64,000 nucleotides of DNA from Escherichia coli (GTDB lineage: Bacteria; Pseudomonadota; Gammaproteobacteria; Enterobacterales; Enterobacteriaceae): assembly GCF_011045215.1 (NCBI RefSeq), contig NZ_CP049201.1; one strand, 5' to 3'. Below the pieces are notes generated by a model. That model was not told the origin of the DNA. It did no database searches and saw only the letters and a list, made by a program, of their open reading frames with translations. How positions within the stretch are numbered: the first letter of the stretch is position 1; every line of letters begins with the position of its first letter. Made by a program: the position numbers and the translations under genes. This document shows, piece after piece, positions 4,595 through 15,440 of this stretch.

Positions 4595-4798
4595 TCGTTA
4601 GCCTGTTTTTTCTGGCGGAATGACGGCATAACCCGGAAGGGATATGCCGCCTGCTTCAGCCTATCACGCCATCAACGCAAAAACTCCCCAGCCAAAATAC
4701 TCCCGGCTGTAGGTAACATTACGCATCGGCGCCGCGCTTAACTCTGCCCGAACCTCAAGCGCGAAACCTGATCCTACCCACGTAATATGGACACAGGC

Positions 4799-5665
4799 CT
4801 AAGCGAGGTTCTGGTTTTCAAATTGTTCCGGACTGAGGCCGCCACACCAACTGTGCCGCCGCCACCGATTGTAATCACATTCGATATAATTAAACACCGT
4901 TGCCCGCATTATTTCCCGGCTGATAAAGTGTTCTCCATGGATACATTCCACTTTCAGCGAATGAAAGAAGCTTTCCACGCAGGCATTATCGTAGCAGCAA
5001 CCTTTTGCGCTCATACTTCCACGCAGATTATGCCGCTTCAGTTGCGCCTGATAATCTGCTGAACAGTACTGGCCTCCACGGTCCGTGTGAACGATAACGT
5101 TCCGGGGCCTCTTACGCCGCCACAGCGCCATCTGCAGGGCATCGCAGGCCAGTTGCGCCGTCATGCGTGGCGACATTGACCAGCCAATAACGGCACGTGA
5201 CCACAGGTCAATGACCACTGCCAGATACAGCCAGCCTTCATCTGTACGTAAGTACGTGATGTCTCCTGCCCACTTCTGGTTCGGGCCACTGGCGTAAAAA
5301 TCCTGCTCCAACAGATTTTCTGACACAGGCAGGCCGTGTGCGCGGTAGCTGACCGGGCTGAACTTCCGGGAGGCCTTTGCCCTCAGTCCCTGACGGCGCA
5401 GGCTTGCCGCCACGGTTTTTACGTTAAAGGGGTAACCCTGAGCACGCAGTTCATCCGTCAGGCGTGGGGCACCGTAACGCTGTTTTGACCGGGTAAAAGC
5501 CGCGAGGACAACGCTGTCGCAGTGTTGGCGGAACTGCTGACGCGTGCTTATCCTTGTCCGCCGCTGACACCACGTATACCAGCCGCTGCGGGCCACCCGG
5601 AGCACGCGGCACATTGCTTTGATGCTGAACTCAGCCTGATGTTTTTCAATAAAGACATACTTCAT
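4799..5665 (-). CDS. insF: IS3 transposase OrfB (DDE integrase domain)
   Basis: 288-aa translation matches IS3 InsF as remembered ([24 protein letters not shown]...). Confidence 0.9.
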
Positions 5666-5970
5666 TTCAGGCGCTTCGCGAAGTATGTCGCGGCCTTTTG
5701 GAGGATAGCCAGCTCTTCATCCCGTTCTGCCAGCTGGCGTTTGAGACGTGCAATCTCGGTAGACATCTCCAGTTCACGTTCAGAAGACGTCTGCTGATTT
5801 TGCTGTTTACTGCGCCAGTTGTAGAGCTGTGATTCATACAGGCTGAGTTCACGGGCTGCGGCAGTAACACCGATGCGTTCAGCAAGCTTCAGGGCTTCAC
5901 TGCGAAATTCAGGCGAATGCTGTTTACGGGGTTTTTTACTGGTTGATACTGTTTTTGTCATGTGAGTCAC
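5662..5970 (-). CDS. insE: IS3 transposase OrfA (HTH)
   Basis: Translation [31 protein letters not shown]... matches IS3 InsE as remembered; overlaps orfB as expected for programmed frameshift. Confidence 0.9.
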
Positions 5971-6016
5971 CTCTGACTGAGAGTTTACTCACTTAGCCGC
6001 GTGTCCACTATTGCTG

Positions 6017-6175
6017 GGTAAGATCACATCGCTATTAATATTTTGACGAATGATAAGGTATTCAAGGCAGGGTTAAGACGTAAGATGCGAAAAGCAGCCA
6101 TGGACAGAAACTATCTCGCGTCAGTACTTGCGGGGAACTGGCTTTCGTAATCTTGCCCTGATCCCGATAGCGGTC
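6017..6175 (+). pseudogene. ISAs1-family (H-repeat) transposase 3' fragment
   Basis: Nucleotide similarity to 18355-18490 (catcgctattaatatt...caaggcagg...gactacctcgcgtcag), encodes [20 protein letters not shown]. Confidence 0.6.
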
Positions 6176-6337
6176 TAATTATTTATAGCACAAGTGGTTT
6201 TTCAATGAATGGGGAAGATCAAGTGAAAAATAATATTCATTAAAAATTGAATAAAATTGAGAGAAGTATATCTCTTTTTAAAAAAGATCCTATTACTTGA
6301 TAGAAGTAATGGTAATTTATGATATGTTCTTATTACA

Positions 6338-6589
6338 TTGAAGAGTATAACTCTTTCCAAAACAGAATTAACATCATCCGTTCTTAAGCAATATCGATTG
6401 GAACTTCTGAAGTATCATGTTGAACTTGTTGAGTTATTTAATAAATATTATATTGTGAATTATAATCCTCAAAGACCCTATCGTATGCATATGTTTCCTC
6501 CTGTGGATGCGGTAGATGGACTTGTGTTTGGTGAAGTGGACCTGAGTAGAATTAGAGATAATATGAATCAGATCTCAAGGAGAATATAA
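6338..6589 (+). CDS. hypothetical protein, possibly 5' part of a frameshifted gene continuing to about 6800
   Basis: 83-aa ORF in AT-rich DNA; a second open frame follows immediately in a different frame. Confidence 0.3.
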   Translation: MKSITLSKTELTSSVLKQYRLELLKYHVELVELFNKYYIVNYNPQRPYRMHMFPPVDAVDGLVFGEVDLSRIRDNMNQISRRI

Positions 6590-6906
6590 GAATTGGAAAG
6601 GAGCTTTCCTTTCAGGCTGCTTTAACTTCGGTAAAATACGTTCTTGAAGCACCAGATAATAAAGTCGGTAATATTGCCACTATTGAGTTTTTCATCAAGG
6701 TTAATTACGAGAATAACCCTTCTGATAAAGCTGAAGTTGAGAAGGTGCTTAATGAATCAGAACTGAAGAATGCTCTTAAGTCCAGAATTCTTGATGATAC
6801 TGTCAGGCAACACAGATGATTAAATCATCTGGATGTATTTAATGCATAAACATTTCTGAATGATACATAAAAATTGTATTTAATGTTTCCCTCCTGGAGA
6901 ATCTCT

Positions 6907-7191
6907 ATGCCCACAGCAGCCAGACTCAGCGATAAAGGCACCCAGCATGACGGTTATTATGAGACCACCATTATTGCAGGCTCCTCCACCGTCTTTATTG
7001 ATGGTATGCCCGCCGCCCGTCAGGGCGATCCGCTGACACCGCATTCCAAACCTGACCATCCCCCTCACCCCCGTAAAATCGCAGGCGGCTCTGCCACTGT
7101 CTTTATTGACGGTAAACCTGCCGCCAGAACCGGCGATGCCATTGACTGTGGCGGCGTGGTTATCGGTGGCGGCACGGTAAATATAGGCTGA
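6907..7191 (+). CDS. PAAR-domain protein (T6SS spike tip)
   Basis: Two repeats of the PAAR motif (FIDGMPAARQGD, FIDGKPAARTGD), about 95 aa, directly upstream of vgrG. Confidence 0.8.
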   Translation: MPTAARLSDKGTQHDGYYETTIIAGSSTVFIDGMPAARQGDPLTPHSKPDHPPHPRKIAGGSATVFIDGKPAARTGDAIDCGGVVIGGGTVNIG

Positions 7192-7211
7192 TTAATTATC
7201 AGGGAGGCTGT

Positions 7212-9611
7212 ATGCCCTCAGAAGGATTACGTTTCACGCTGTCGGTGGACGGTATCGTGGAGATGGCGACGGCGGTGGTGAGCTTCCGTCTGTACCAGCA
7301 CCACTGCACGCCGTTCATCCTGGATGTGGATATCGCCAGCGGGCTGTCTGACCTGACGGCGGAGGATTTTCTGGAGAAGAGCGCGGTGCTGACGGTCTGG
7401 CAGGGTGATATCCCGCAGCGTTACGTCAGCGGTATCGTGACGGAGGTGCAACTGGGGGAGAACAACGACTGGCAGATGCGTTATTCCCTGAGCATCAGCC
7501 CGCCGCTGTGGCGGGCAGGGTTACGGCAGAACTTCCGTATCTTCCAGCAGCAGGACATCCAGACGATATCAGCACAGCTTCTGAGAGAGAACGGAGTGAC
7601 GGCATGGATGCCGCTGTTTTATGAAGACCATCCGGCGCGGGAGTTCTGTGTGCAGTACGGGGAAAGCGACCTGGCGTTTCTGGCGCGGCTGTGGGCGGAG
7701 GAGGGGATTTTCTTCTTTGAGCGGTTTGCGGCGGACAGTCCGGAGCAGAAGCTGACGCTGTGCGACGATGTGGCGGGGCTGTCACAGGCGGGAGAGCTTC
7801 CGTTTAACCCGGACACATCGGCAGGAGCGGAGACGGAGTGTCTCAGTACGTTCCGTTATGAGGCGCATGTCCGCCCGTCGTCGGTGCAGAGTCAGGATTA
7901 CACGTTTAAGGTGCCGGACTGGCCGGGGATGTATGAGCAGCAGGGTGAGAACCTGAACGGACAGCTGGCGCAGTACGAGATATTTGATTATCCGGGAAGG
8001 TTCAAGGATGAGCAGCACGGCAAGGATTTCACGCTGTACCAGATGGACAGCCTGCGCAGTGATGCGGAAAAGGCCACAGGGCAGAGTAATTCACCGAAGC
8101 TGTGGCCGGGAACGCGGTTTACGCTGACGGGGCATCCGCAGAAGATGCTGAACCGTGAATGGCAGGTGGTACAGAGCATACTGTCAGGAAGCCAGCCGCA
8201 GGCGCTGCACGGCAGCCAGGGGAGGGGAACCACGCTGGGAAATCAGTTAGAGGTGATACCGGCAGACCGGACGTGGCGTCCACGGCTGCAAAGCAAACCG
8301 AAGGTGGACGGGCCGCAGAGTGCCATTGTGACCGGGCCGAAGGGTGAGGAGATATTCTGCGACGAACATGGCCGGGTACGGGTGAAGTTCCACTGGGACC
8401 GTTATCACGGGATGACGGAGGCGAGTTCATGCTGGGTGCGGGTATCGCAGGCGTGGGCGGGGCCGGGGTTCGGTAACCTGGCGATACCGCGGGTGGGCCA
8501 GGAGGTGATTGTTGACTTCCTGAACGGCGACCCGGACCAGCCCATCGTCACGGGACGGACCTACCATGAAGATAACCGCTCCCCGGGCGACCTGCCGGGA
8601 ACGAAGACGCAGATGACGATACGGTCGAAGACCTATAAAGAAAGCGGATTTAACGAGTTGCGGTTTGAAGACGCCACCAGTAATGAGCAGGTGTATATCC
8701 ACGCGCAGAAGAACATGGATACGGAGGTGCTCAACGACCGGACAACGGATGTGAAGCATGACCATACGGAGACCATTGGTAACGACCAGAAGATAACGGT
8801 GGTGAAGGGGCAGACGGTTGAGGTCGGGACCAGAAAAGAAGGAGGCCACGACCAGAGTATCACGGTGGCGAACGACCGGAGCATAACGGTACGTAACGAC
8901 CAGACGCTGAAGGTGACAAATGACCGGACGGTGAGCGTGAGTCACGATGACGGTCTGTACGTCAGAAATGACCGTAGGGTGACGGTGAAAGGGAAGCAGG
9001 AGCATAAGACGACGGGTAACCACATCAGCCTGGTGGAGGGGAAGCACAGCCTGGAGGTGAAGGGGGACCTGGCGGAGAAGGTGAGTGGCGCGCTGGGGAT
9101 AGAAGTGGACGGGGATATCGTGCTGGAGAGCAGCAGCCGGATAAGCCTGAAGGTGGGTGGCTCGTTTATCGTCATTCAGCCGGGCGGAGTGGATATTGCC
9201 GGGCCGAAGATAAACCTGAACGGTGGGGGCAGTGCGGGGACACCGGTGGGGACGATGCAGCCGGCGGTGCTGGAGGCTCCGGAGGATGAGAGCAGTGATG
9301 ATGGCAGTGATGACTCCGGAGAGGATAGTGGCAATCCCGCAGGGAGTGACGGAGGAGGTGATGGCGGTGACGATGAAGATGATCCTGAAAAATATACCCT
9401 CCAGTTCCATTTTACGGACGATGACGGGATACCGTATTCAGAGACGCAGTATATTGCCTTTTTTGAGGATGGCACACAGACGCGTGGTGAAACAGACAGA
9501 GAGGGATATACAGAAATATTTTATACAGATACAGCACAGGAAATTAAAGTCCAATTGTTATTTTCGGATGCTTTTTATATTGAGCCGGAGGGGCATTATG
9601 GCAGGGAATAA
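7212..9611 (+). CDS. vgrG: T6SS spike protein VgrG with acidic linker and C-terminal extension
   Basis: 799 aa; gp27/gp5-like core, beta-helix repeats (NDRT.. repeats), acidic stretch EDESSDDGSDDSGEDSG, then about 70-aa C-terminal tail. Confidence 0.9.
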   Translation: MPSEGLRFTLSVDGIVEMATAVVSFRLYQHHCTPFILDVDIASGLSDLTAEDFLEKSAVLTVWQGDIPQRYVSGIVTEVQLGENNDWQMRYSLSISPPLWRAGLRQNFRIFQQQDIQTISAQLLRENGVTAWMPLFYEDHPAREFCVQYGESDLAFLARLWAEEGIFFFERFAADSPEQKLTLCDDVAGLSQAGELPFNPDTSAGAETECLSTFRYEAHVRPSSVQSQDYTFKVPDWPGMYEQQGENLNGQLAQYEIFDYPGRFKDEQHGKDFTLYQMDSLRSDAEKATGQSNSPKLWPGTRFTLTGHPQKMLNREWQVVQSILSGSQPQALHGSQGRGTTLGNQLEVIPADRTWRPRLQSKPKVDGPQSAIVTGPKGEEIFCDEHGRVRVKFHWDRYHGMTEASSCWVRVSQAWAGPGFGNLAIPRVGQEVIVDFLNGDPDQPIVTGRTYHEDNRSPGDLPGTKTQMTIRSKTYKESGFNELRFEDATSNEQVYIHAQKNMDTEVLNDRTTDVKHDHTETIGNDQKITVVKGQTVEVGTRKEGGHDQSITVANDRSITVRNDQTLKVTNDRTVSVSHDDGLYVRNDRRVTVKGKQEHKTTGNHISLVEGKHSLEVKGDLAEKVSGALGIEVDGDIVLESSSRISLKVGGSFIVIQPGGVDIAGPKINLNGGGSAGTPVGTMQPAVLEAPEDESSDDGSDDSGEDSGNPAGSDGGGDGGDDEDDPEKYTLQFHFTDDDGIPYSETQYIAFFEDGTQTRGETDREGYTEIFYTDTAQEIKVQLLFSDAFYIEPEGHYGRE

Positions 9612-10401
9612 TAATACTAGTGGGACTTCACAACCCGAGTCGCAAGTATGTGTAGTACCGCAAAAAATTACAAATAAATTTAAAATAATGATGAGTAAGG
9701 CTTGTAAAGCACAGAAAATGGTTTTATTGAAAAGAGCAGATGATATTATGTCATGGGAGGGGGAACAACAACGAGATTTTATTAAAGTTTTTGGCCTTAA
9801 AGGCGAGGACATTATAAAAATCAGAAAGGTTGGGGAAGATACTGGGAAACGAATGCAAGCGAGACTATTCATAATGGATGGCATCAGACAAATAATGACG
9901 ATTGCAAATGGTTTGACGATCGAAAGCTATAAAGATTATACGAACTGCAATGAATTTGCTGCTTTTATTAGTCCACATCTTGATCCTCCTTACATTGTAA
10001 ATATCGGAGCGCATTTTGAATACAGACATGGTATAAAACAGTCGGTTACAGGTAGAGACTCTCATGTAAGTACACTTTGCCATGAAATGTCCCATATATT
10101 TTGGTATTGGGGTGACAATCAAAAAGGTGGTATGTGGACTCAGGATTATACGGGTATTAATAAGTTCGCAACAAGTAATAAGGATGAAGTTAGCTATGAG
10201 AAACATGTTTCAGTGGCTAATGATCTGGTTACATTGCGTAAAGATCAGTTATTTGAGAATGCATATAATGTTGAAAGATATTTTTATATAAAATTAAATG
10301 ATGAAGATATTGAAGCTCAAGATGAGAATATGTTAGCAAAAAAAGTAGAGGATAAAATAAAAGAGATAGAAAAATGTTTTGATGAGTTGATGGGGAAATA
10401 A
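9598..10401 (+). CDS. putative T6SS effector, HExxH zinc-metallopeptidase-like
   Basis: Start overlaps vgrG stop by 14 nt; HEMSH motif (LCHEMSHIFWYW); AT-rich versus GC-rich vgrG; the longer listed ORF 9223-10401 is an in-frame read-through of vgrG sequence. Confidence 0.6.
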   Translation: MAGNNNTSGTSQPESQVCVVPQKITNKFKIMMSKACKAQKMVLLKRADDIMSWEGEQQRDFIKVFGLKGEDIIKIRKVGEDTGKRMQARLFIMDGIRQIMTIANGLTIESYKDYTNCNEFAAFISPHLDPPYIVNIGAHFEYRHGIKQSVTGRDSHVSTLCHEMSHIFWYWGDNQKGGMWTQDYTGINKFATSNKDEVSYEKHVSVANDLVTLRKDQLFENAYNVERYFYIKLNDEDIEAQDENMLAKKVEDKIKEIEKCFDELMGK

Positions 10402-10402
10402 G

Positions 10403-11242
10403 ATGAAGAGGTTGGCTTTCTATAATCTAAATTATGTTGTACTGATGGTTTTTTTTCTTTGTTTTTTGCCATTATCTATTGCAATTGCAATAGATAATGA
10501 GAATCTTTTTGTAAAAAAATACAGATTCGGTTTTGAACGAAGAAATGACAATGGGAAACCAATTATTTATCTTAGCCATAATTTAGCGCCAGAGGAAAAT
10601 ATAAGTAATGAATTAACAAATGATGTTGTTGTTAAATTGGTGGTTAAGCCACATGCTGAAAATATTTTAGCTACTATAACTTTTTATAACAGTAGTACTA
10701 AATCGTATTTTCTCCCCAGAATATATTATCCAAAGAACTTCCAAAAAGGAAATGGAGATGTATTTGATGCTTTGTGTGATGACGAATTCTTGATTACATC
10801 AGGAAATATTAGCTTAGACTATCTAGGAGGCTTTTGTCCCTTTGAGCTTGATTTGAATTTGAGCCGATGGGTGGAAATTACGGCAGGTAAAAAAATATCT
10901 TTTGATGTAAAATTGAATGATATGCATTCATTTCTCCCCAGTTTAAATAATTATCATATAAAAACATTAAACTACAAACTTGTTAGGAGAAAATGGTTTG
11001 TATTAAAATCAATTAATGAAACATTCCTCTCTATTTTGATGAAAAGATACTCATGTAATGAATATGATTTTAGAGCTATATCATTTAGTGGAGAGGGATG
11101 TGATAATTATGAATTTGATAAAAATACGTTTTTTTTTGTTAATCAAATATTAGATAAAGATGATGAGCAACATTCTGTTCATATTAGGTCTAATGAATTT
11201 TCCATCAATATCGATGGAAGCTTGGTAAAGCAACCTTATTGA
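10403..11242 (+). CDS. putative cognate immunity protein (exported or membrane-anchored)
   Basis: Starts 2 nt after effector stop; N-terminal hydrophobic signal/anchor (VVLMVFFLCFLPLSIAIA); AT-rich. Confidence 0.5.
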   Translation: MKRLAFYNLNYVVLMVFFLCFLPLSIAIAIDNENLFVKKYRFGFERRNDNGKPIIYLSHNLAPEENISNELTNDVVVKLVVKPHAENILATITFYNSSTKSYFLPRIYYPKNFQKGNGDVFDALCDDEFLITSGNISLDYLGGFCPFELDLNLSRWVEITAGKKISFDVKLNDMHSFLPSLNNYHIKTLNYKLVRRKWFVLKSINETFLSILMKRYSCNEYDFRAISFSGEGCDNYEFDKNTFFFVNQILDKDDEQHSVHIRSNEFSINIDGSLVKQPY

Positions 11243-11299: not shown

Positions 11300-11730
11300 C
11301 TTAAGAGCCGGAAACACCTCTTCCGCCTTTATCGACGATAAACCTACCGCCAGAACCGGTGATGCCATTGACTGCGGTGGCGTGGTTAAAGGTGGAGGGC
11401 GATGTGGTGCTGGAGAGCAGCAGCCGGATAAGCCTGAAGGTGGGCGGCTCGTTTGTGGTCATCCATTCAGGGGGCGTGGACATCGTCGGGCCGAAAATCA
11501 ATCTCAATAGCGGCGGTAGTCCGGGAACGCCGGTGCCGACGCTGCAACCGGCGGTTCTGAAAGCGCTGGCAGATGATAAAAGTTTAGCGGCTGAGCAAAA
11601 TGATAGTAATGCATCGTCCGATCAGAATGATAACAACGATGAGGGTGAGGAAGCGCCAGAAAAATCGGTGTGTAAGGAGTGCCTGAAAAGGGCGCAAGAA
11701 GCCGCCGCCGTTTTTGCGCCTCGTGGATAA
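11300..11730 (+). pseudogene. PAAR 3' fragment fused to vgrG 3' fragment (deletion scar of a second PAAR-vgrG copy)
   Basis: 11310-11398 is near-identical to PAAR 3' end (7090-7180); 11398-11560 near-identical to vgrG 9120-9280; a distinct C-terminal tail follows. Confidence 0.7.
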
Positions 11731-11736
11731 GGGAGA

Positions 11737-12506
11737 ATGACAATGATAACAGTATCGCCACACGCTACCGATCAAGACAAATATATTATCTGGCTGAAGC
11801 AAGCTGAATCATTCTGTTCTGCCGCTGGTTTGGATTACATAGATGTGCTTGTTGACCAGGCTGGAACCGACCAACCTTTGCAAAATGATATGCTTCATCT
11901 GTCGCCAGCCATTCACTGGTATGCCCTGTTTGAAGGAACGCCTGAAGCTGAGACGATGGAGTATTCCCCTGTAGTGTTACGCCTGTACTTTGCGCTCAGT
12001 AGCCATCGCAAATTTCTGGCACAACTGATGGCGTCATTTGCTGATACGCCGCGTCTTACTTTGTTGATATCCCCTCTTACATTCGACCTGCTGGGCGGCA
12101 TCTTCAGGTATTGTCACAGGTTCAGTGGGAAGAACAGACCGGATTGCTGCGTTACTATGATAATCGGGTGTTCCCTTTACTGTTCACACATGTTTTGACT
12201 AACGAGCAGCAGGCGACATTTACTGATATTGCGTTGTTCTGGAGCTGGTTAGACCGTGATGGTGAGATTAACTGGAAATCAGGAAGTTTTTCACCAGAAC
12301 GCAGGCTTACTGACAACCCGGAGATGAATCGGGTGGATGATGTACAGGTGGGATTGATGGGCTGTATCTGCGACGCTGAAGTCCTGATGAAGGAGAAAGC
12401 AGTCAGTGAACTCAGTCAGGAAAGCTATTTTGCCCACTGTCTTGATATTGCTTTCAGGGCCAATGACGCGAAATATTTCGGAGCTTTGCGGGACTTCGAA
12501 GGATAA
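11737..12506 (+). pseudogene. hypothetical T6SS accessory protein (adaptor-like position), apparently frameshifted
   Basis: Two overlapping ORFs (11737-12198, 12111-12506) in different frames, directly after the vgrG tail fragment. Confidence 0.35.
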
Positions 12507-12819: not shown

Positions 12820-13362
12820 ATGTCCAGCAAAATAAGAAATGGAATGAATATAACAAAAGTAGTTAAAGGCTGTCTGGTATTAATTTTGATGGTGATTTCT
12901 GGTTGCTCAGCAGATAATTACGACGATTATACTGCAGGTGATCTCCGGGCAATAAATCATATTAAAGGTATCAGTATTAATTGGTTCACCGTAAATGGTT
13001 ATCGGGTCCATGGTTTGGGCGGTGGATATTGCTGCATAATGTTACCAAAGAAGTGGCATTCTGGATTAAAAGCCCGGATCGAGTGGGAAGTAGACCCGAC
13101 CCCCCTTGAACCTATTGCAATGAAAAAAGAAGGTTTTGGCTATGAAGAAGATGCTTATGCTAAACATGCTGCAAATTATCAAAAATATAAAGTAATTGTT
13201 GACATCCCGGAATACGGCGCTGAACGTTGTGGCCTGACCGTTCATTTTCTGCCGTGTAATCAGATTAAAGTGACAACCGTCTGCGAGGGCTATGGCACAC
13301 CGAATTATCCTATCAAAGAACCCCGCGAGATGAAGGAACCTGCAACATGTCCAGCAAAATAA
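12820..13362 (+). CDS. lipoprotein, candidate Tle1 immunity (Tli-like)
   Basis: Lipobox ISGC after signal peptide; Cys-rich periplasmic domain; 3' end overlaps tle1 start. Confidence 0.5.
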   Translation: MSSKIRNGMNITKVVKGCLVLILMVISGCSADNYDDYTAGDLRAINHIKGISINWFTVNGYRVHGLGGGYCCIMLPKKWHSGLKARIEWEVDPTPLEPIAMKKEGFGYEEDAYAKHAANYQKYKVIVDIPEYGAERCGLTVHFLPCNQIKVTTVCEGYGTPNYPIKEPREMKEPATCPAK

Positions 13363-15440
13363 GTGGTCTGGCTTTTCCGTGTTATGCCCCCCCGGTGTTC
13401 CCTGAAGATGGGCGATTAATATTATCTGAAGCGCAGGTAAACGCGAACTACCTAAAACAAATCAATAAAACAGAAGAGCACAAAACCAACTGTAGTAAAC
13501 AGGCTGGATTTAGAATTGGCTTTACGTGTAATCAAAGTATGCATATTAGTCTGTTTTTTGATGGTACAAATAATAATGAATATAATGACACTCCTGGACA
13601 CCCAACCAATATTGCCAAACTGTTTCATACGACCTATCAGAACGCAGAAGAACAGGGATATTTTAACTACTATATACCGGGTGTAGGCACACCATTTCCC
13701 AAGATAGGTGAAATGGATTACAGCAACAGCGGGCTGGAGTTCGCTACTGGTGGTGAAGATCGAATTAATTGGGCATTATTACGCCTCGTGGATGCCCTGA
13801 GCTATTCCATTGACCCTTCCCATAAGCGACTGGATGATAATGTGGCAAAAGAGCACATTCCTCTTATGCGCGCTCCCTGGCCTATGACTGGTGAAGTGAA
13901 TCGTCGCAATGTGATTAACCCCTACCTGGAAAAATTACAGGGACTGTTAGAGCAAGCCAGTCCGCGCCTGCTAAACGTAAAGCTGTTTATCTACGGATTT
14001 TCCCGTGGCGCAGCGGAAGCACGAACTTTTGTTAACTGGTTGACTCAGTTAGCTTGCCCGCAGGAGCAACAGGTGATGCTGGCCGGGTTAGCTGTCAGTA
14101 TTGAGTTTTTGGGGCTGCTGGATACCGTAGCTTCTGTGGGGGCGGCGCATGTTTTACCGGGCGCTGCCGGTCATATGGGATGGGCCGATAGTACTCAGCA
14201 ACTCCCTGATGAGAGGCAGTTTCCCGGCCTGATTAAATGCTGCCGCCACTTCGTTGCCGCGCATGAGCAGCGGCTGTGCTTTCCGCTGGATTCAATCCGT
14301 CGTCCAGACGGAAATTATCCTTTAAATGCAGAGGAAATTATCTATCCGGGGATGCACTCTGATGTCGGTGGTGGCTATCCCGTTCGCGATCAGGGGAAGT
14401 CCTGTGGTGACTCAGGCGAAATTCTTTCTCAGATAGCACTGCATGATATGTATCTTGCTGCATTTGATTCAGGAGCACCACTTGCTGTTTATTCTAAATT
14501 TGTTACTCCATTAATAAAAGGTGTGTCGCCTCTGCGAATTATGAGTCCTTCTAGCGTAAAGGAATTTACGATTGCTAATTCATTAACAAAACGCTTCAAC
14601 ATCTGGCGACAAACGCTGCTGAACACCACCTTGCAGGGTACAGAAGAAATGATTGATACGAGGGAAGGTTATCACTCCTATCAACTTGCCCAGGTTCTTG
14701 AAAGCGCAATTAGCGATCAGATCGGCTGGATCACCGCCTGGCGTATCGGTCGCTATGCGAATAACAGCCTTCTTGTGCAACCTTTTTATATTAAGGCGCC
14801 ACAGCTGGATAAAGATGGACTTGATAAAGAGGCTAAAGCGCGTAAAGAACAAATGGAAAATATTGAAAAAGAGCGGGCGAACAAGCAGAAAGGGAATGGC
14901 ACACTTGATGAAAGTAATCAGGGCATTCCTATCCTTGACCCAACCAATGCTCAGTATCAGTTGCGAGAGGCAGCCCGAGAATTTCAGAGCGATTATAAAG
15001 GATGGACGCGCGATATTAACGGCAGCGTCATGGAGAAAGCCATTCAGATTCTTGTGGATGTCATTCCTAAATATCCGGTGTATCTGATTAATGGCGATGA
15101 TGAAGCAAAAGAATATCAGCAAATTAAGGCTATGGGAGACGGACTCTATCCACAATTTTTTATTGATTCACTGGGAACGGGAACGCGTACTCAGCCATGC
15201 GCTGAATTACTGGCCCTCTATGATGACCAGGTTCACGACTCCCGCGCCTGGTTTATGCAAAGTTCGCTGGGTGGACGTGAACCCTGGGGCGGTTATTTTC
15301 GCTACCGCATGATTTACTTCGGTGATGAGGCTAATAAAGAGCTGAAGCTAATCTCTGCAGATGGCAAAGTTGTTGGCGATCAGCCCACATCCAACCGGGT
15401 CATTTATTGGATGGAATCGAAAACGGTGAGCCGAGGTTAA
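13347..15440 (+). CDS. tle1: T6SS phospholipase effector, Tle1 family (DUF2235 alpha/beta hydrolase)
   Basis: 697 aa; GxSxG lipase motif in YGFSRGA; located in the vgrG island. Confidence 0.75.
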   Translation: MSSKISGLAFPCYAPPVFPEDGRLILSEAQVNANYLKQINKTEEHKTNCSKQAGFRIGFTCNQSMHISLFFDGTNNNEYNDTPGHPTNIAKLFHTTYQNAEEQGYFNYYIPGVGTPFPKIGEMDYSNSGLEFATGGEDRINWALLRLVDALSYSIDPSHKRLDDNVAKEHIPLMRAPWPMTGEVNRRNVINPYLEKLQGLLEQASPRLLNVKLFIYGFSRGAAEARTFVNWLTQLACPQEQQVMLAGLAVSIEFLGLLDTVASVGAAHVLPGAAGHMGWADSTQQLPDERQFPGLIKCCRHFVAAHEQRLCFPLDSIRRPDGNYPLNAEEIIYPGMHSDVGGGYPVRDQGKSCGDSGEILSQIALHDMYLAAFDSGAPLAVYSKFVTPLIKGVSPLRIMSPSSVKEFTIANSLTKRFNIWRQTLLNTTLQGTEEMIDTREGYHSYQLAQVLESAISDQIGWITAWRIGRYANNSLLVQPFYIKAPQLDKDGLDKEAKARKEQMENIEKERANKQKGNGTLDESNQGIPILDPTNAQYQLREAAREFQSDYKGWTRDINGSVMEKAIQILVDVIPKYPVYLINGDDEAKEYQQIKAMGDGLYPQFFIDSLGTGTRTQPCAELLALYDDQVHDSRAWFMQSSLGGREPWGGYFRYRMIYFGDEANKELKLISADGKVVGDQPTSNRVIYWMESKTVSRG

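Follow-up and report, generated by a model that had tools for sequence, protein, structure and literature searches.

In Vibrio cholerae, the evolved VgrG effector VgrG3 has the gene of its cognate immunity protein, TsiV3, directly downstream. Evolved VgrGs with an immunity partner are also described in P. aeruginosa (VgrG2b; PMC6899460) and in V. fluvialis (TssI2-TsiI2; PMC9620997). In the auxiliary T6SS clusters of V. cholerae, effectors have been displaced and immunity genes kept in arrays (PMC5361080), and Enterobacter T6SS clusters (T6SS-i3) hold immunity genes without effectors (PMC10763514). What does such a locus look like once the toxin has gone and its partner has decayed in place? 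The window analysed here, a stretch of 64,000 nucleotides of Escherichia coli DNA, probably preserves such a case. At positions 6223-6819 of its plus strand lies a non-functional pseudogene of a ~200-aa gene, which we read as the former cognate immunity partner of a lost, toxin-bearing evolved VgrG.

Like the evolved VgrG effectors, the intact relatives of this locus combine a toxin-like C-terminal fusion with a small gene that follows 27-68 nt further on the same strand. Unlike them, their C-terminal domain matches no described toxin family, and most of the ~200-aa partners lack a signal peptide, whereas known periplasmic immunity proteins have one. Like the orphan immunity genes of V. cholerae and Enterobacter, the window's gene is in an immunity position and stays beside a vgrG module after removal of the toxin, with a 3′ vestige of the old effector gene (6158-6190) still attached to it. 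It differs from them in that the loss is tied to an ISEc1/IS3 junction, with no replacement by a new effector-immunity module. Moreover, contrary to working orphan immunity genes, the window copy is broken by four lesions, and its family is one without known relatives, whose immunity role is predicted from gene order. A last comparison is with the DUF4123/Tap-1, DUF1795/Eag and DUF2169 adaptors, which are likewise small obscure genes adjoining PAAR or vgrG; here, however, there is no sequence match, and the partner comes after the effector domain rather than before a cargo effector.

The original prediction was of a possible frameshifted gene at 6338-6870, made of an 83-aa ORF and an adjoining open frame in AT-rich DNA. 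Both are present as described, apart from small coordinate differences. The ORF has 83 codons on the plus strand (6338-6589), from a TTG start to a TAA stop at 6587-6589. The second frame, expected to be open to about 6800, is indeed open, for 86 codons (6562-6819), but its true end is a TGA at 6817-6819. It overlaps the first by 28 nt and has no ATG, GTG or TTG near its beginning. The GC content is 0.28-0.37 in 300-nt windows of the region and 0.32 over 6223-6819, a composition at which stops are expected about every 12 codons; when the 597-nt region was shuffled, an open run of at least 84 codons appeared in just 2.3% of cases.

That both frames derive from a single gene, now decayed, as had been suspected, follows from homologs that span both. 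An exhaustive phmmer search of 1.84 billion representative proteins with the fused frames as query returned 10 proteins, 7 of which (199-270 aa) align across the junction, at E=1.6e-48 to 2.8e-17. The best match is P0002 (60% identity, E=1.6e-48), followed by P0004 (E=2.4e-37) and by P0005 to P0009 (E down to 2.8e-17). A word-indexed protein search with the same query gave only P0001, a 91-aa fragment from a read-archive (Logan) assembly. All relatives are single ORFs, none of them split, and they extend about 40 residues further at the N-terminus than the 83-aa ORF. When seven intact homologs were placed on the window by tblastn (linked E-values 1e-23 to 2e-54), residues 1-24 fell on 6223-6294 in frame 1, with a TAA inside; residues ~20-111 on 6281/6293-6559 in frame 2, with a TGA inside; and residues 118-199 on 6562-6807, again in frame 1. 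An intact locus in Escherichia sp. E4385 (L003, which carries P0002) shares 80.5% nucleotide identity with window 6158-7984 over 1870 columns, and the pseudogene is 62% identical to P0011 over 197 columns. By tblastn and by protein and nucleotide alignments, the whole pseudogene is colinear with P0002, P0004 and P0011. The limits first given were thus off at both ends, the true start at 6223 being 115 nt further upstream and the former end lying some 50 nt too far downstream. Instead of a product of about 155 aa, the ancestral gene had ~199-200 codons.

The pseudogene opens with a GTG (6223-6225) at the position of the ATG in P0004-type homologs (MKNN...). In L003 the ATG lies opposite AAA of the window (6226-6228), and the Shine-Dalgarno sequence of that locus, GAGGGGGAG, is degraded in the window. 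Four independent disabling lesions follow, two of them nonsense codons located by tblastn and nucleotide alignment. The first is a TAA at 6241-6243, where L003 has TTT (Phe). An A is then inserted at 6295 (CCTATT-A-CTTGAT, against CCTATTCTTGAT in L003), which shifts the reading from frame 1 to frame 2. The second nonsense codon, a TGA at 6320-6322, replaces a CGA (Arg) of L003. Finally, a deletion of 16 nt between 6559 and 6560, where L003 has AAAACGATCCGGGAAA, brings the reading back from frame 2 to frame 1. Every member of the family has six residues here, never more or fewer, flanked by an invariant IK and Y (IKD-xxxxxx-Y), so the deletion removes six codons and changes the frame. The gene thus suffered more than the single frameshift first supposed: both nonsense codons and the inserted A lie upstream of 6338. 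Nor is the frame changed by a homopolymer at 6585-6600, as had been proposed: none is there, and the deletion lies ~27 nt upstream of the stop of the ORF. The junction, GAGATAATATGAAT, contains neither a slippery heptamer nor a homopolymer. The 83-aa ORF and the open frame after it are by-products of these lesions. The former (6338-6589) corresponds to the middle of the gene, read in frame 2 from a chance TTG start to a stop made by the frameshift, while the C-terminal part, YESDLKENIRIGKELSF..., runs in frame 1 at 6562-6819 by tblastn and nucleotide alignment. At its end, the ancestral TAA stop has become CAA, and three codons are added before the TGA. One Logan contig pointed to the loss of a single nucleotide, at ATC(C)TC, as the cause of the frame change. 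This was rejected: the frame-1 YESD before that site already matches the family, whose Y118 never varies, and in the nucleotide alignment it is 16 nt that are missing.

In intact relatives, the gene is found at eight loci, downstream of a VgrG ORF that carries one particular C-terminal domain, at the spacing and on the strand given above. These loci are L003/L004, L005/L006, L007, L017/L018, L012 of Buttiauxella izardii, L013/L014 of Cronobacter turicensis (detected by tblastn), L015/L016 of Lelliottia amnigena, and L021 from a Hadza gut metagenome. A search for related loci with a four-sequence alignment returned Buttiauxella only. The C-terminal domain sits on two unrelated VgrG cores, one of the gp5-repeat type (L005, L012), which is also the type of the window's own VgrG, and one of the DUF2345 type, in a VgrG of 1030 aa (L017). 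Three of the eight loci, L017 included, are inside complete T6SS clusters. The genes after the partner vary (PAAR, TssE, AhpC, glycosidase): L003 and L021 have a PAAR gene about 100 nt further on, L017 has tssE, and L005 and L012 have unrelated genes. With such varied genes downstream and a constant domain upstream, the gene belongs with the toxin-like domain before it rather than with a PAAR-vgrG module. The pair moves as a unit, the same partner and the same domain recurring on different carriers and in different neighbourhoods. Such an arrangement is typical of effector-immunity pairs built on evolved VgrGs. Two distant family members occur without a VgrG, within runs of small unannotated ORFs. 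Apparent signal peptides are limited to P0006, P0008 and possibly P0005 and P0013. Some homologs (P0005 and P0013; L012 1604-1690) are called with a hydrophobic N-terminal extension (MKxQITLI..LSLCVVSS), encoded in another frame over the 3′ end of the preceding vgrG. Either a genuine signal peptide or an artefact of gene calling could account for it, and the overlapping vgrG codons may be all that keeps it conserved.

The ~200-aa family forms 11 clusters by profile search, with some 17 distinct members over all searches. It is confined to Enterobacteriaceae and to gut and environmental metagenomes, and all its named members are labelled "hypothetical protein." Its partner, the C-terminal extension of VgrG, consists of an Ig-like segment (ITTET...FTIVEPS) and then ~180 aa with the conserved motifs HxxGxPDCGW, WHG and WEWTIDK...EQKHE. 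With a profile of this domain, just nine clusters came up, under the labels hypothetical, BIG2-domain and VgrG. Its DCGW and WHG motifs may recall papain-like Cys-His hydrolases, and the domain is a putative toxin whose toxicity is assumed here. No family match came out of Pfam and NCBIfam scans that covered the two fragments and their fusion, 15 members of the family and 6 toxin domains, apart from a sub-threshold CCL2-lectin-like hit on the Ig-like linker and noise hits (SLX9, GspB). Neither did searches of PDB sequences with profiles of the ~200-aa family and of the C-terminal domain return anything, and no match to a described immunity family was found by sequence or by fold. An AF2 model of an intact homolog, built from a 15-sequence alignment, has a pLDDT of 92.7 and a pTM of 0.85. 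It shows eight helices, and the most conserved stretch of the protein is a non-regular segment of 35 residues (75-110), with the family motif NYKPxKPYxLxLMPPxGAVDGPVFGxVDPAxIKD. Foldseek with this model against the PDB gave nothing at E<1 and generic helical-repeat matches only. For the VgrG C-terminal domain, AF2 gave a model of pLDDT 42, confident in the Ig-like part alone and otherwise too poor for structural conclusions. Rather probably, the ~200-aa all-alpha protein and the ~180-aa VgrG domain form an undescribed T6SS toxin-immunity family confined to Enterobacteriaceae, maybe with a new toxin fold or activity.

How was the toxin gene lost? Homology with L003 begins at 6158 by blastn, and positions 6158-6190 (plus strand) hold a vestige of the lost evolved vgrG, its last ~10 codons (..PDPDSGL..), followed by the old intergenic spacer; in tblastn, "PDPDSGLI" falls at 6157-6180. 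Only ~30 nt of toxin-gene DNA survive in the window, and no copy of the toxin domain was found within its 64 kb or at the corresponding locus of E. coli ET350. Just before the vestige comes the 3′ remnant of an ISEc1 (ISAs1 family, H-repeat), at 6027-6160 on the plus strand. It retains the transposase C-terminus with its stop (6148-6150) and the right end, whose limit is set by alignment, and by megablast it matches thousands of E. coli ISEc1 copies. The remnant is itself cut by a 1258-bp IS3 at 4769-6026 on the minus strand. This IS3 is flanked by the triplets ACC and CAT, and since these differ, its junction was made by recombination between IS3 copies and not by a simple insertion. The left flank is 100% identical to E. 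coli PapRG-06-5, where the same junction is followed by a fimbrial operon; comparison of the two sequences suggests an IS3-mediated rearrangement through recombination between IS3 copies. Between the reconstructed window gene and the intact gene of L003, dN/dS is 0.30 (dS 0.86), against 0.08 for PAAR and 0.33 for the VgrG N-terminus. The divergence was thus mostly under constraint, and inactivation came late relative to the split from L003.

Downstream, the T6SS island goes on with an intact PAAR gene (6907-7191, plus strand; Pfam PF05488, E=1.7e-21), which starts 88 nt past the TGA of the pseudogene, and an intact 799-aa VgrG gene (7212-9611, plus strand; Pfam Phage_GPD, E=1.5e-76). An 8-bp inverted repeat, CAGATGATTAAATCATCTG, at 6813-6831 spans the stop codon of the pseudogene; its 3′ half is conserved in L003, and in a simple scan it looks terminator-like with a weak T tail. 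A simple promoter scan of the region found nothing above chance. The ORF at 9598-10401 overlaps the vgrG stop, starts with MAGNNN and has an HEMSH motif and a sub-threshold Aspzincin_M35 match (E=0.0015); the next one, at 10403-11242, is AT-rich, has 279 aa and gave no family match. Together they may code for a metallopeptidase effector and the matching immunity protein. After this first effector module, 11318-11398 is similar to the 3′ end of PAAR, and 11384-11547 to a 3′ segment of vgrG and also to 9111-9250, so that 11318-11547 looks like the recombination scar of another vgrG module. Overlapping ORFs at 11737-12198 and 12111-12506 match DUF4123 profile positions 4-87 and 85-117, respectively, and look like a second frameshifted gene in the island. 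A DUF3304 protein (12820-13362) and a Tle1-like phospholipase effector (13347-15440) come next; the catalytic-domain match of the latter begins only at profile position 172, its N-terminal part being perhaps divergent or missing.

Could the break in the frame be an error of sequencing or assembly, the gene being intact in the organism? This reading, which is close to impossible, draws on the Logan contig SRR12299016_3840 (L002). There, an extra C near window ~6573 (ATCCTC, against ATCTC in the window and in ET350) rejoins the frames after the deletion, and this is why the gene caller produced P0001 across the junction. The contig is noisy, however, with about eight homopolymer deletions in 1.1 kb, some of them inside the PAAR gene. 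Real or not, the extra C has no functional meaning, since the nonsense codons and the 1-nt insertion are kept in the same contig. The complete genome of E. coli ET350, from frog faeces, has the same 700 nt at 99.7% identity, and PGAP annotated nothing in its pseudogene region. Because all four lesions are common to ET350 and the Logan contig, as well as to the window, they are not sequencing errors; a 16-nt deletion and substitutions to stops would in any case be atypical of reads. Among 5426 complete E. coli genomes, one has the pseudogene sequence. As a side observation, the ET350 locus (L001 2549-13535) holds two tandem PAAR-vgrG modules at yncG-pptA (RhsE/ydcC), with both vgrG genes annotated as frameshifted, two damaged ISAs1 copies, and the pseudogene between the modules. 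A single recent or programmed frameshift in a functional gene of about 155 aa that serves the PAAR-VgrG module, whether as effector, immunity protein or chaperone, is very improbable and largely refuted. It has for it that two long open frames adjoin just before the PAAR gene, and that in L003 and L021 an intact homolog does precede a PAAR gene. Yet the four lesions disable the gene, with both nonsense codons upstream of 6338; the junction is a deletion in which six codons of conserved length have gone, lacking any slippery site; the relatives are single ORFs; and the second frame has no start codon. No PAAR gene comes directly after the partner in L005, L012, L015 or L017, whereas the specific VgrG domain is always upstream. 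Membership in the downstream PAAR-vgrG spike module, as originally proposed, thus gives way to a tie with the upstream VgrG domain, whatever follows. The adaptor Pfams DUF4123, DUF1795/Eag and DUF2169 gave no match at E<=10 in the window fragments and 15 family members.

The main alternative concerns the role of the family, the window copy being a pseudogene all the same. The ~200-aa protein would then be an accessory of the evolved VgrG, either a chaperone or stabiliser of its domain or a co-secreted second subunit of the effector. Gene order, from which the immunity role is predicted, would also fit an effector-specific chaperone; the modelled scaffold resembles helical repeats, which are common among binding proteins and chaperones; and the frequent lack of a signal peptide would suit a protein of this kind. 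Nonetheless, T6SS chaperone and adaptor genes usually stand before the effector gene and belong to recognised families, none of which matches here. The distant members that lack a VgrG are placed like orphan immunity genes, among series of small unannotated ORFs, and the DNA of this lineage kept the partner longer than the toxin gene, the pattern known from immunity genes (PMC5361080). The accessory role is accordingly unlikely, though of the competing readings it deserves the most attention. Of the roles first listed for the decayed gene (effector, immunity or chaperone), decay stands as an observation, and immunity is the favoured one: from gene order, a cognate immunity protein is the probable ancestral role.

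If the gene encoded an immunity protein, the following course of events may be proposed. In its intact form, the gene regularly follows that of an evolved VgrG, a spike protein of the T6SS that ends in an Ig-like linker and a putative toxin domain. Its product would bind this domain and neutralise it in the producing cell and in kin. Since most members have no signal peptide, the cytoplasm would be its probable place of action, and the conserved 35-residue extended loop on the all-alpha scaffold would be the likely contact surface. In this lineage, the toxin-bearing vgrG was removed up to its last ~10 codons at the ISEc1 junction. No longer needed against self-intoxication, the immunity gene would have been free to gather two nonsense codons, the +1 insertion and the 16-nt deletion. 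A dead orphan gene of immunity type beside IS elements in a T6SS island would be an ordinary fate.

For the annotation of this DNA, the outcome is one pseudogene at 6223-6819 in place of a gene of the PAAR-vgrG module, and the locus documents the erosion of a T6SS island by IS elements. If the immunity reading is true, the window copy is a dead immunity gene, the trace of a weapon once carried by the lineage. The pair of toxin domain and partner on evolved VgrGs is rare, with ~20 sequence clusters among billions of proteins, all labelled hypothetical, in Escherichia, Buttiauxella, Cronobacter, Lelliottia and gut metagenomes. With a confident partner structure and clear motifs, it offers a lead as a directly testable candidate effector-immunity pair.
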